Assembly: GCA_965198235.1 (NCBI GenBank)
Contig: OZ240248.1
Span: 2,336,001 to 2,400,000 of the forward strand
From: Candidatus Poribacteria bacterium
GTDB lineage: Bacteria > Poribacteria > WGA-4E > WGA-3G
DNA: 64,000 nt
Direction of reading: 5' to 3'
Shown here: in pieces, positions 40,012-44,669 of the stretch
How the letters are laid out: every line of letters starts with the position of its first letter
Numbering within the stretch: the stretch's first letter is position 1
Notes under the pieces: model-generated
Told to the model about the DNA's origin: nothing
Seen by the model: only the letters and a program-made list of their open reading frames with translations
Database searches by the model: none
Program-made: the position numbers and the translations under genes

Positions 40012-41010
40012 ATGCAAAACAACTGGAAAATCCTCATCACCGATTACGCCTGGCCCTCCATAGAACCCGAACGACAGGTGCTCGCTGAAATTGGGGCAGA
40101 ACTCATTGCTGCCGAGACTGGAGACGAAGCAGAACTCCTAACCCTCGCACCCACCATGGACGGCATCCTCACCTGCTGGAAACCCGTTCGTGCGCCTGTC
40201 ATTGCTGCTGCTCAGAAATGCCAGATTATCGGACGTTGCGGTATCGGGTTGGACAACATTGATGTGGAAGTCGCTACGGAACACGGCATTGTTGTGACCA
40301 ATGTTCCTGCCTATTGTATTGATGAAGTCTCCGACCACGCGATGGGGTTGCTGCTGGCGTGTGCCAGAAAAATCTCGCGTTTCGATCGGGCAATCAAGGG
40401 AGGCACATGGGATCAGAACATAGGACCATCGATGCGTAGAATCCGAGGCAAGACGCTCGGTGTTATCGGCTTCGGACGGATCGCTCGGTCAATTGTGCCG
40501 AAAGCAAAGGCGTTCGGGTTTACAATCAACGTCTGTTCCCCACGCACCGATCCCGAATTGATTCAGCAATACGGCGCACAAAAGGTTTCGTTTTCAGAAC
40601 TTCTCGCAACCTCTGATTTCATCACGATCCATGCGCCGCTAACACCAGAAACACAGGGTATGTTTGGCGAGGTAGAATTTCGGGCGATGAAACCGACGGC
40701 TTATCTGATTAACACGGCGCGTGGGGGTATCGTAGACACCGCTGCACTTACCACTGCACTCCACAACGCTGAAATCGCTGGTGCAGGTTTGGACGTATTG
40801 GAAACCGAACCGCCTGAACAAAACGAGGAACTGCTCACCCTCGACAACGTCATCGTTACACCGCACGCCGCTTTTATGTCAGAGGAATCAATTCTTGACT
40901 TAGAAATTGCTGCCGCCACGTGTGTCGTAGAAGTACTAACGGGAAAGTTGCCAGAATCCGTCGTGAATCCATCGGTTCTGGAACAATCGAACCTCCGCGC
41001 AAATTTTTAA
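40012..41010 (+). CDS. D-isomer-specific 2-hydroxyacid dehydrogenase (CtBP-like)
   Basis: GIGLDNID, GFGRIA, INTARG, LDVLETEP, TPHAA. Confidence 0.92.
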   Translation: MQNNWKILITDYAWPSIEPERQVLAEIGAELIAAETGDEAELLTLAPTMDGILTCWKPVRAPVIAAAQKCQIIGRCGIGLDNIDVEVATEHGIVVTNVPAYCIDEVSDHAMGLLLACARKISRFDRAIKGGTWDQNIGPSMRRIRGKTLGVIGFGRIARSIVPKAKAFGFTINVCSPRTDPELIQQYGAQKVSFSELLATSDFITIHAPLTPETQGMFGEVEFRAMKPTAYLINTARGGIVDTAALTTALHNAEIAGAGLDVLETEPPEQNEELLTLDNVIVTPHAAFMSEESILDLEIAAATCVVEVLTGKLPESVVNPSVLEQSNLRANF

Positions 41011-41105
41011 ACGATGGGGATCTGTGCCGTTTTCATTAAGAGGTGTTCGTTAAACCCAAAGTGGTAGCCTGCAACACCGGCGCAGGCGGATATACGGAGA
41101 TGAAT

Positions 41106-41310
41106 GTCAGTGACCCCGCCCTAAAGGGCGAGGCTTGTCCAATACGGCAGCCAGGTTTCCTATAGATTGGACGAGAGCAATTCATTGACTACAGTAATAT
41201 ATCGCGGGTTCTGGTCGTGGCAGTCCGAAGTATGTTTTGGATACTCCCCGAGTCTAATTCCTCTGCGAACCTGTGATCTGGAAGGGGCAACATATACCCT
41301 GAAAAGGAGA
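41106..41310 (+). ncRNA. putative omegaRNA/HEARO-like scaffold (boundaries approximate)
   Basis: lies between the IS left end and an orphan RBS (GAAAAGGAG); contains GGATACTCCCCGAGTC..CTCTGCG..GAAGGGG, recalling omegaRNA motifs. Confidence 0.6.
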
Positions 41311-41321
41311 ATACAAACTTA

Positions 41322-41429
41322 TATTCTCTACAAGGGAAGCGTCTTTGCCAAAATGCTAAAATATCAGAGTGTAAGGTGCTCACACGCCTTAACTTTAACT
41401 ATAGGAACGGTGTTTCCTCCTCTGCCTAA
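41322..41429 (+). pseudogene. C-terminal remnant of an IsrB/IscB-like (RRXRR) nuclease
   Basis: [35 protein letters not shown], no start codon, begins about 12 nt after an RBS; resemblance recalled, not searched. Confidence 0.55.
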
Positions 41430-41458
41430 AGACAGAGGGTTCCACACCGAATATTTTG

Positions 41459-42691
41459 ATGAAATCTCAGATCCATCTAAACGACCCGCAAGGTATAATT
41501 AAAAAACTTCCTGATGCAACAGGGCATTTTGGACAATTCGGAGGCAGATACGTCCCCGAAACCCTCATGCCTGCCCTTTTAGAACTTGAAGAAGCATACA
41601 TTAAGCTTAAAGACAATCACGACTTCCAACAAGAATTTCGGTACTACCTCCGTGAATATGTCGGCAGGCCAAACCCTCTCTATTACGCCGAACATTTGAC
41701 AGAGACGCTCGGTGGAGCAAAAATATATCTCAAACGGGAAGACCTCAACCATACAGGTGCACACAAGATTAACAGCGCGATAGGTCAAATTCTCCTCGCA
41801 CGATGGATGGGCAAAAAACGCATCATCGCTGAAACGGGTGCGGGACAACACGGTGTCGCAACAGCCACCGTTGCCGCAAAGTTCGATATGGAGTGCGAAG
41901 TCTATATGGGTGAGGAGGACATAGAACGGCAGGCACTCAATGTTTTCCGTATGCAACTAATGGGGACAAAAGTGGTACCGGTTAACTCTGGGTCACGTAC
42001 CCTCAAAGATGCGATTAACGCCTGCTTCCGTGATTGGGTCACGAATGTCCGAACCACCTATCTGCTTCTCGGTTCAGTTGTCGGTGCGCACCCTTACCCA
42101 ATGATCGTTCGGGACTTCCAAGCCGTCATCGGTGACGAAGCGAGAGCACAGATTTTGGAGCAGGAAGAGACTTTACCGGATTGTGTCGTCGCCTGTGTCG
42201 GCGGTGGGAGCAATTCACTCGGCATGTTTTATCCGTTCTATGCCGATGCATCCGTTCGGCTTATCGGTGTGGAAGCCGCGGGAGAGGGCATTCGTAGTGG
42301 ACGGCACGCTGCGCCTCTCACTGCTGGCAGTGTTGGTGTCTTTCACGGTGCTAAGTGTTATCTATTGCAAGAGGATGACGGTCAGATAACCCCCGCACAT
42401 TCGATCTCTGCGGGATTAGATTACCCCGGTGTCGGACCGGAACACAGTTATTATCGCGAAACCGGTAGAGCGGAATACGTCCCGATTACAGATGCAGAGG
42501 CGGTAGAAGGGTTCCGGTTGTTATCTGAGACAGAGGGCATCATTCCAGCATTGGAATCCGCACATGCTATCGCCTATCTGCGTGAACTTGCACCTAAACT
42601 CGGCAAGGACAAGATCATCGTGGTTTGTCTCTCAGGTCGCGGCGATAAAGATGTCTATACCATCGCAAATGAATTAGGTGCCGCTCTGTAG
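41459..42691 (+). CDS. trpB: tryptophan synthase beta chain
   Basis: [59 protein letters not shown]. Confidence 0.97.
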
Positions 42692-42854: not shown

Positions 42855-44669
42855 ATGCCAATTCAACAATATACTGTAAATGATTACCCTATTGGAACTG
42901 TGCTGACTTGGATACAACACAAGGAAATCGCGATACCTGAAATCCAGAGACCTTTCGTTTGGAAGGCAATCAAGGTACGTGATTTCATTGATTCACTCTA
43001 CCAAGGATATCCCGTCGGGTATCTTATCACGTGGCGGGCCCCTGATGTCCGACTTAAAGATGGAACACAATCAGTAGGTAAGCGTGTTTTGATCGATGGA
43101 CAACAACGCGTCATTTCTCTGCGGGCGGCATTACTGGGGCAAGAAGTAGTCAACAAAAAGTACAAACGAACGCGAATTGTCATTGCCTTTCATCCGATTA
43201 AAAAAAGTTTTGAGGTGGCAAATTCGGCTACCAGAAAAAATCGTGAGTGGATTAATGATATCTCTACTATCTTTGATCCTGACTTCAAAGTCCTTAATTT
43301 TTTGGACGAATACTGTAGTAATAATGAGGGTGTAGATAGAGACGAGGTCTATAATTGCCTTCATCGTTTACAGAACATCAGGAATAACACTCTTGGGATT
43401 ATCGAGTTGGAACCGGATCTGAATGTCGAAACAGTCACGGAAATTTTTGTTCGTATCAATTCCAAAGGTGTCACACTGAATGCATCAGATTTCGTTATGT
43501 CCAAGATTGCTGCTGGTGAACAGTATGGTGGGCACCAGCTCCGCAAAGGCATTGACTACTTTTGCCGCTTAGCGGTCTCTCCCGAGGAATTTGGCAACCT
43601 ATCTACAGACACTGACTTTGTTGAGACCGAGTACTTGACTAAAATGAGATGGCTCAGAAATTGGAGAAACGAGCTCTACACCCCTTCTTACACTGACTTA
43701 CTTCGGGTAAGTTTTATGATAGAGTTTCAACGTGGCCGCTTAAGAGATTTAGTTGCTCTATTGTCAGGTCGTAATTTTGAAACACGTAACTTTGAGGAAG
43801 AAATTGCTGAGGATTCTTTTTGTCGCCTTAAAAATGGGCTTATTCGCTACATCAACAAAACTAACTTCAATCGTTTCGTTATGATACTGGAGTCGGCAGG
43901 ATTTGTAGATAGTTCTATGATTAACTCAATGAACGCCGTCAATTTTGCTTATGCGTTATATTTGATGCTGCATGTGGAACGGACAGACCCCCAAAAGATC
44001 GAGCAGTTGGTACGGCGTTGGTTTGTGATGTCAATCCTGACCGGTAGATACACTGGAACACCAGAAACTGCTTTTGATGAGGATATTCGGAATATTACTA
44101 CCCGGGGAGCAAGCAAGTATCTCGCAATAATAGAGCAGGCAAATCTTTCAGATACTTTCTGGGATGTAGCACTTCCACAACAGATGGAAACATCAAGTGG
44201 GAAAAGCCCGTATTTGAACGTCTTTCTGGCAAGCCAAGTCAAAGCAAACGACAAGGGTTTTCTTTCACGTGATATTACGGTGCGGACTCTGCTTGAAGGT
44301 CGCGCAGACATTCATCACATATTTCCACGTAACTATCTACAAGAGCATGGTTTCGCCGCTAGAGATTACAACCAGATTGTGAACTTAGTTGTAATGCAGC
44401 AGGAAATCAACATTGCTATCAGTAATCGACCTCCAGCTACCTATTTTTCGGACCTATGGGAAGGAGTTATAAACAGAAAACCTGCCTTTAGAAGCGGGAT
44501 AGATGACGCTAAAGAGCTGCAAACTAATCTCGATGCACACTGTATTCCCCCAGACATGAAAACGGCGACATTTGGAAATTACGGTGAGTTTCTGGAAAAA
44601 CGCAGAAAACTTATGGCTACTAAAATACGAGACTACTACAGAAACCTACAAAACTGTCCTCTGTTATAA
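42855..44669 (+). CDS. GmrSD-like (DUF262 + HNH-like C-terminus) putative modification-dependent restriction endonuclease
   Basis: IPEIQRPFVW, IDGQQR, FVRINSKG, DIHHIFP...N. Confidence 0.82.
   Translation: MPIQQYTVNDYPIGTVLTWIQHKEIAIPEIQRPFVWKAIKVRDFIDSLYQGYPVGYLITWRAPDVRLKDGTQSVGKRVLIDGQQRVISLRAALLGQEVVNKKYKRTRIVIAFHPIKKSFEVANSATRKNREWINDISTIFDPDFKVLNFLDEYCSNNEGVDRDEVYNCLHRLQNIRNNTLGIIELEPDLNVETVTEIFVRINSKGVTLNASDFVMSKIAAGEQYGGHQLRKGIDYFCRLAVSPEEFGNLSTDTDFVETEYLTKMRWLRNWRNELYTPSYTDLLRVSFMIEFQRGRLRDLVALLSGRNFETRNFEEEIAEDSFCRLKNGLIRYINKTNFNRFVMILESAGFVDSSMINSMNAVNFAYALYLMLHVERTDPQKIEQLVRRWFVMSILTGRYTGTPETAFDEDIRNITTRGASKYLAIIEQANLSDTFWDVALPQQMETSSGKSPYLNVFLASQVKANDKGFLSRDITVRTLLEGRADIHHIFPRNYLQEHGFAARDYNQIVNLVVMQQEINIAISNRPPATYFSDLWEGVINRKPAFRSGIDDAKELQTNLDAHCIPPDMKTATFGNYGEFLEKRRKLMATKIRDYYRNLQNCPLL

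Follow-up and report, generated by a model that had tools for sequence, protein, structure and literature searches.

A nuclease-less, internally deleted IsrB transposon upstream of trpB in a Candidatus Poribacteria genome as a candidate stand-alone guide-RNA element

Can a transposon that has lost the gene for its RNA-guided nuclease still provide a guide RNA for nucleases encoded elsewhere in the genome? The question is raised by a nuclease-less element, here called W, in a Candidatus Poribacteria bacterium that is a sponge symbiont; W is located in the 445 bp that separate trpB, a tryptophan synthase gene, from the preceding 2-hydroxyacid dehydrogenase gene (40012-41010, + strand). The window is the whole stretch of 64,000 nucleotides that was analyzed, positions 2336001-2400000 within a 5.17-Mb genome; coordinates are those of the window unless prefixed by C1. 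An earlier note, based on the sequence alone, described this locus as a stand-alone omegaRNA element that had deleted its own nuclease. Its anatomy and origin are settled: W is a non-autonomous, internally deleted ISC1/IsrB derivative. That it is a guide-RNA transposon which depends on proteins supplied in trans is, taken from the anatomy through to the use in trans, the explanation we favor, and we regard it as reasonably probable.

Ten copies in the genome hold the whole 5′ non-coding segment, as revealed by blastn and nhmmer. Six of these (A, B, C, D, E, and X) possess approximately 920 bp of additional sequence exactly at the junction of W and encode proteins of 341-355 amino acid residues; A, B, C, E, and X are intact, while D has an internal stop. 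Pfam analysis of protein A indicated RRXRR only (E 4e-30), and its best match in the PDB is IsrB (8DMB; E 7e-35, residues 5-281), IscB entries matching the N-terminal part only. From these two results the sister genes are identified as IsrB nickase genes. Following the nomenclature of PMC4810608, the sister elements belong to ISC1, within the IS200/IS605 superfamily, and the closest relatives of their proteins are found in records titled Candidatus or uncultured Poribacteria, save one "uncultured bacterium." The genome also contains five short elements (185-235 bp; C1:1012452, 3157919, 3046388, 1866635, and 4077201) that resemble palindrome-associated transposable elements (PATEs) and have retained nothing but the first ~83 nt of the omegaRNA region and the right end, as well as nine solo right ends and IsrB fragments whose first residue is 153, 245, or 279.

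The region of W matches the full-length elements by blastn (84% over 127 nt, E 6e-32), and by tblastn the stretch 41304-41423 corresponds to residues 301-340 of IsrB (65% identity, E 4.6e-9); its features are therefore not due to chance. The internal deletion, of ~915 bp, took away IsrB codons 1 to ~305. Our reading of the alignments places the probable deletion junction at a TTAT common to the start-codon region and codon ~306. Mutation of the start codon from ATG to ATA was ruled out: tblastn places TTATATTCTCTACAA in IsrB codons ~306-310, from which it follows that the start was lost by deletion. What survives is an orphan ribosome-binding site (RBS), with no ATG, GTG, or TTG downstream of it in the IsrB frame, and a C-terminal remnant whose TAA stop falls inside the loop of the 3′ hairpin. 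ISC1 elements code for IsrB (PLMP plus a split RuvC, no HNH); as only 36 IsrB codons are left, W is a derivative and not a full ISC1 member. The earlier note was correct on the loss of the nuclease and on the RBS without a start codon. Two of the findings that it named as refuting are excluded, as full-length elements with the same ends exist in the genome and the tail is homologous to IsrB; the tail, given there as 35 codons, has 36 plus the stop.

The borders of W are defined by empty sites in congeners. Six of the seven loci inspected (G018, G006, G024, G007, G010, and G012) are uninterrupted and read ...GGAGAT(G/A)AAT^ATG..., where the caret marks the insertion point; the exact empty site is ...GGAGATGAAT^ATGAAA..., and G018 fuses window position 41105 straight to 41459 (...GGATATACGGAGATGAAT^ATGAAATCC...). 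The element, which starts with GTCAGTGA ahead of its first hairpin, was inserted at a 4-nt target, N^ATGA, without target-site duplication. Since ATGA is present in the empty sites it is host DNA, and the possibility that the element carries the ATG itself is ruled out. Both end hairpins are subterminal and imperfect, and their stems covary among copies. These hairpins, the non-coding segment of ~200 nt, the ATGA immediately outside the right end, and the empty allele GGAGATGAAT^ATGA, which actually occurs in congeners, had all been recognized beforehand; the extent then given (41080..41465) takes in a real element together with host flank at 41080-41105, which would serve as the guide. The seventh locus (G014; L038, reverse strand, ~1150-1640 of the reversed locus) harbors an independent ~470-bp hairpin-ended insert in the same trpB spacer between Shine-Dalgarno (SD) sequence and ATG, a few nucleotides upstream; its right end is related (nhmmer E 7.6e-8), and no omegaRNA match was found in it.

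The coordinates of W and of related features are collected in Table 1.

Table 1. Features of element W, its flanks, and the nuclease-less S lineage
Feature	Position	Strand	Basis
Element W, internally deleted ISC1/IsrB transposon, 353 bp	41106..41458	+	Empty sites in six congeners (G018 and five others); 7 sister copies aligned
5′ subterminal hairpin CCCCGCCC-TAAA-GGGCGAGG	41114-41133	+	
Non-coding stretch, no open reading frame (ORF)	41106-41303	+	
Orphan RBS AAGGAG of the lost isrB	41304..41309	+	Aligns with RBS ahead of the ATG of full-length copies
IsrB C-terminus remnant, 36 codons plus TAA, reading LYSLQGKRLCQNAK...	41319..41429	+	tblastn
3′ hairpin CCTCTG-CCTAAAGA-CAGAGG	41419-41438	+	
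3′ hairpin plus terminal 20 nt, ending ...AATATTTTG	41419..41458	+	nhmmer, family right-end profile, E 1.2e-29; end conserved in all copies
ATGA: transposon target site, predicted IsrB target-adjacent motif (TAM), probable trpB start	41459..41462	+	Present in empty sites
Predicted 20-nt guide GCGGATATACGGAGATGAAT, host flank	41086..41105	+	Adjoins 5′ end of element
Putative omegaRNA scaffold, ~195 nt	41106..41300	+	RNAalifold on 10 copies
Scaffold helix P1	41106-12/41183-89	+	
Scaffold end hairpin	41114-21/41126-33	+	
Scaffold long stem	41201-11/41267-77 and 41192-94/41278-80	+	
Scaffold hairpins	41212-16/41223-27, 41238-42/41252-56, 41284-86/41298-300	+	
trpB, 410 codons, intact ORF	41459..42691	+	Sole genome copy (single tblastn match)
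Host DNA, 5′ half of ~85-nt repeated leader unit	41053..41105	+	54 genome occurrences; continuous with 41459 onwards in congeners
SD-like GGAG within leader unit	41096-41099	+	
S1-S3, nuclease-less elements	C1:4416412-4416858, 1070729-1071181, 4757286-4757722		
S-type loci in other genomes	L164-L172, L175, L190, L191		

The non-coding segment of W is homologous to the segment that lies directly upstream of isrB, at the transposon end, in all six full-length copies of the genome and in 80 of 80 loci from named Poribacteria records, a sample limited to those 80 with the greatest similarity to protein A. RNAalifold analysis of the ten-copy alignment gave 45 consensus pairs, with compensatory changes in 25. 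W keeps 43 of the 45, compared with 40, 42, and 39 in the nuclease-intact copies A, B, and C (39-44 in nuclease-intact copies overall). Invariant G-U pairs, which would be A-C were the opposite strand folded, assign the structure to the + strand. The Rfam family HEARO (RF02033) matches W over 41106-41295 from model position 1 (23.3 bits, E 0.013), and the relatives S1 and B at 27.7 and 25.4 bits, respectively; the gathering score of this family is 83 bits, so that by the Rfam criterion the scaffold is not a HEARO member. The covariance-model match that the earlier note asked for is obtained in part, from the first model position but under the cut-off. Like HEARO, W begins with GUCA...P1 followed by the first hairpin, and the two have a GGAUGCUCCCCAAGUC core in common. 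No Rfam family matched the element at gathering level, and no riboswitch or T-box-like match was seen.

The HEARO score, and the consideration that hairpins in DNA would likewise covary, could be taken to mean that the segment is merely the single-stranded DNA signal of the transposase, or an unrelated RNA. This we consider very improbable. The five minis were transposed with the first ~83 nt and the right end only, from which it follows that the rest of the segment is unneeded for transposition; the segment occurs exactly at the position of IsrB omegaRNAs in every full-length copy and every Poribacteria locus mentioned above, and its invariant G-U pairs suit an RNA of + sense.

The reading of W as a source of guide RNA gains from a related lineage, S, which also lacks the nuclease gene. 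Elements of this type are ~440-480 bp in length; S1-S3, of 437-453 bp, consist of the full omegaRNA plus an extra hairpin of ~40 nt, with no isrB. When S1 was searched against 31 genomes of the genus, many of them returned long matches; 30 loci from the S search yielded 16 resolved two-ended elements, 14 of them 405-575 bp in length. Covariation was assessed in 16 nuclease-less elements, comprising W, S1-S3, and 12 from 10 other congeneric genomes. The structure was obtained from sequences related to one another, which inflates covariation counts of the kind that follow: 93.6% of cells are paired, against 80.2% in shuffles and 35-47% in slid controls, and both-side changes occur in 30 of 53 pairs, a number reached by 0 of 500 shuffles. 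In the extra hairpin all eight pairs covary; this hairpin is missing from 73 of the 74 nuclease-bearing copies sampled, the remaining one having a 25-nt extra. Because the S lineage keeps its fold by compensatory change, an RNA that has lost its nuclease is not thereby freed from constraint. Such change in many species argues, at the level of sequence comparison, that orphan guide RNAs are used, and compensatory evolution in a nuclease-less lineage constitutes comparative evidence for functional orphan guide RNAs.

The chief competing explanation is that W is an inert relic, a dead deletion derivative that decays slowly, whose omegaRNA is intact merely because the deletion is recent and which nothing loads. 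It would fit the uniqueness of the W junction, which is unmatched in 40 other genomes and in three collection scans, and a graded series of 5′-truncated remnants (the IsrB fragments, five minis, and nine solo right ends described above), which indicates that decay is common in this genome; the data on expression of the W RNA, moreover, are library contigs. Against this, W holds 43 of 45 pairs despite 16-25% divergence from every sister, and the related nuclease-less lineage maintains its fold through compensatory change across species. On balance we judge the relic explanation unlikely, though it is the most serious of the competitors.

As a trans-dependent guide-RNA transposon, W would need a guide, a nuclease, and a transposase. 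The length of the predicted guide, 20 nt, is borrowed from DtIsrB (PMC9581776), and IsrB TAMs are given there as NTGA/NTG. No second perfect target of the guide is present in the genome; near-matches elsewhere, with 2-3 mismatches in 20, all TAM-proximal, lie in other copies of the leader repeat to which the guide belongs. Those at C1:4860023, 1633400, and 3771083 are leader-unit copies followed by GTGA or ATGA. The window contains neither a tnpA nor a full IsrB gene, as the earlier note stated; all six Y1-transposase matches and all six full-length IsrB matches fall outside 2336001-2400000. Genes for tnpA do exist elsewhere in the genome: three of the six Y1-transposase genes belong to tnpA-tnpB IS605 units, two of which (C1:4381488 and 4792784; 1848 bp) are 99% identical, and none of the six adjoins an isrB. 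The end hairpins of the IS605 units, CCCAATCC-TTTAG-G(T/G)TTGGG, nearly equal the hairpin of S1 read on the other strand. The three solitary Y1-transposase genes (C1:3853757, 606918, and 1898775) are of a different type (MANTYTQLYVHIVFSVKGR...) and possibly domesticated. With five intact isrB and three IS605 tnpA genes in the genome, nuclease and transposase activities could act in trans.

We envisage that host-side transcription, from the dehydrogenase gene and the trpB leader, would enter W and generate an RNA with the final ~20 nt of the trpB 5′ untranslated region (UTR) on its 5′ side and the omegaRNA scaffold as its body. IsrB from an intact sister copy would bind this RNA. Were the TnpA of a genomic IS605 copy to excise W, the restored site, with its guide match plus ATGA, would be nicked, and repair from the sister chromosome still carrying W would reinstate the element. 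The occupied junction reads guide plus GTCA, and the occupied site would be spared from nicking because GTCA occupies the TAM position. Translation of trpB would meanwhile have to start at the A/U-rich end of the element (...GAAUAUUUUG^AUG), with the SD sequence of trpB itself unavailable. W would then represent a stand-alone guide-RNA transposon that is doubly trans-dependent, on a foreign transposase and a foreign nuclease.

Use of W in trans is plausible by precedent and from the S-lineage evidence. Stand-alone omegaRNAs are known to occur beside effector-bearing loci and to function in trans (PMC9581776, PMC10691335); those of IscB type were reported, according to both of these papers, by Altae-Tran et al. 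2021, and their biological role is stated as unknown in PMC10691335. Since trans-acting stand-alone omegaRNAs are already in print, W adds a well-documented example to a kind of system that is known. As in the IscB cases, an omegaRNA gene is found with effector and transposase absent in cis and with effector-bearing copies in the same genome; it evidently stems from a mobilized element and may be expected to act in trans. W differs in being of IsrB (nickase) type, in that its origin by internal deletion can be read directly from the RBS and the 36-codon tail, and in that its empty site is documented in sister species. It also resembles the PATEs of IS200/IS605, which are short, protein-less, two-ended, and mobilized in trans, and often encode omegaRNAs needing a nuclease in trans (preprint 10.1101/2023.03.14.532601); in the examples described there, which are of TnpB type, the RNA is found at the right end, whereas in W, of IsrB type, it occupies the other end.

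Among full-length elements, ISC1-1_MA of Microcystis aeruginosa has, like the W family, a 5′-GTCA terminus and an N^ATGA target without duplication, and relies on a transposase in trans (Kapitonov, Makarova, Koonin 2016, PMC4810608). It encodes the IscB1 (= IsrB) gene only, a gene that W is without, and its 3′ terminus is ...CG, compared with ...TTTTG in W, whose host belongs to the Poribacteria. The protein of the full-length sisters matches that of the DtIsrB-omegaRNA complex 8DMB (Hirano et al. 2022, PMC9581776), the NTGA/ATGA TAM of which fits the flanking ATGA; the scaffold of W measures ~195 nt versus 262 nt for the DtIsrB omegaRNA. W is an unusually clean natural example of a stand-alone omegaRNA arising by one internal deletion, and with the empty site, guide, TAM, candidate nucleases, and candidate transposases identified, in vitro nicking and homing tests are directly designable.

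Hints of expression come from assembled contigs, four sequencing runs having been compared; the runs containing this stretch are labeled sponge metagenome or metatranscriptome. Contigs from an RNA library cannot prove transcription, as DNA is possibly included. In one metatranscriptome library, from a strain ~98% identical, one contig covers 40705-41135 (depth 22.2) and another 41109-41900 (depth 22.6, 17 differences), so that the dehydrogenase gene runs into the element, and the element into trpB, at equal depth. The second contig has at least 13 differences at or beyond 41485 (416 nt behind the element) and at most four in the element's 350 nt, a difference between two strains that speaks, weakly, against the relic explanation. 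As weak hints, these patterns are compatible with read-through transcription and with constraint.

Several observations weigh against the use of W as a guide RNA. W is merely 75-84% identical to any sister in the genome, and compatibility with their IsrB is assumed. Its deletion junction is spanned by no match among the 41 searched, and exact-pattern scans with the deletion and left junctions gave 0 hits in metagenome and genome contig collections, from which records of its own genome may be excluded; W is therefore a single occurrence, as opposed to a lineage that spreads. The HEARO scores of W and its sisters lie far under the gathering score, and on its own the W fold does not surpass shuffled sequences in stability (z -1.34; equaled by 17 of 200). 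The RNA evidence consists of library contigs, which possibly derive from DNA. A promoter and terminator scan revealed no sigma-70-like promoter on the + strand near the element, and the empty-site joint 41105^41459 is absent from the contigs of the four runs, in which the joints listed are other leader-repeat copies with different intervening letters. Finally, the frame at 41459 passes through repeat sequence, and the start of trpB is placed there with probability, not certainty.

The ATG at 41459 is the probable trpB start codon, being in frame with TrpB and conserved in all seven genomes in which the locus was inspected. In the empty sites GGAG lies 6 nt upstream of the ATG in ATGA. The insert parts this GGAG from the ATG of the only trpB, yet trpB is intact, which would suit an exapted 5′ UTR: W would persist as the trpB leader, its 3′ end giving translation initiation and its structure perhaps modulating expression, with any guide role irrelevant. 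Solo right ends are expected if the host needs the last ~100 nt, and five of the nine such remnants abut the ATG of a long gene, four of these genes being confirmed by Pfam (pheT-like, DHDPS-family, DegT-family, and enolase-superfamily). This explanation accounts for retention of the 3′ end, however, but leaves that of the 5′ end and of the complete omegaRNA scaffold unexplained; Rfam gave no riboswitch or T-box-like match, and congeners express trpB without the insert. We consider it improbable.

The position of W ahead of a start codon is shared by other members of its family. In its own genome, a co-oriented ATG followed by a frame of 250 codons or more directly adjoins 11 of 23 copies or right-end remnants, and in one further case the frame has 72 codons. 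Among 40000 random ATGR sites, the share with a frame of 250 codons or more is 9.2% (binomial p 2e-6); under a generous null restricted to intergenic or start-like sites the expectation rises to 21.6% (p 0.005). In the docked copies the host SD sequence is stranded on the other side of the element, and an SD-like motif is present 10-14 nt ahead of the junction in six of seven such two-ended copies. Real Pfam domains begin near residue 1 in all eight downstream proteins tested (MatE, rhodanese, PhyH, UPP synthase, DHDPS, PheT-type, DegT, and enolase-type). Family copies and right-end remnants that for the most part adjoin the ATG of a co-oriented host gene are located at C1:4954355, 733465, 1071185, 4757725, 1866873, 143977, 400849, 241634, 2986511, and 4863681, and in loci L053-L161.

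Comparable arrangements occur in related genomes, bearing in mind that the three sets (own genome, congeners, and named records) overlap in genomes and that kin are not independent. Among 29 congener loci, 19 right ends were resolved and all 19 are followed by ATGA; 12 of these open at least 200 codons, three run off the contig, one opens 99 codons, and three are short. The 80 loci from named Poribacteria records gave 47 resolved right ends, 41 with ATGA and five with ATGG. Of these 46 ends, 27 lead into a frame that has 100 codons or more or reaches the contig end, 20 into one of 200 codons or more, and 13 into one of fewer than 50.

We tentatively propose, as a possibility to which we give somewhat less than even weight, that the Poribacteria IsrB family is a "start-codon docker," inserting co-oriented between SD sequence and ATG (trpB, pheT, uppS, dnaN-like), and that the nuclease-less W and above all the S lineage persist as guide-RNA-only parasites, their omegaRNA being selected for recruiting the IsrB of other copies. 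If so, the host promoter and 5′ UTR would transcribe guide, omegaRNA, and isrB, the guide would be the host ribosome-binding site and the TAM the start codon, and the conserved A/U-rich element end would assume translation initiation of the host gene. Should the pattern hold, an RNA-guided transposon family at translation starts would tie transposon maintenance to host gene expression, and the transcription of a guide located outside the element would be explained. No paper connecting IsrB or IscB with start codons was found in the literature searched, and the phrase "start codon" is absent from PMC4810608.

The host DNA into which W is inserted is itself repetitive. The leader unit (window 41053-41105 plus 41459-41506) is ~85 nt long and consists of a GCCTGCAACAACGGCGCAGGC hairpin, a variable hairpin, and then CCGCAAGGWAWAATTAAAAA. 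The genome has 54 occurrences of its 5′ motif. Among 32 paired units, the distance to the 3′ motif is constant at 84-85 nt in 30, and ATG or GTG is found a few nucleotides downstream in 19; the units are occasionally tandem. The repeat matches no Rfam family. Its interpretation as a REP/REPIN element tied to the three RAYT-like tnpA genes was rejected, as no copy lies within 3 kb of them. The synteny of the dehydrogenase gene and trpB is maintained across the genus. The gene after trpB (window 42855-44669, + strand) is not trpA; its product, of 604 aa, carries the restriction-endonuclease N-terminal domain GmrSD_N (Pfam E 6.5e-29).

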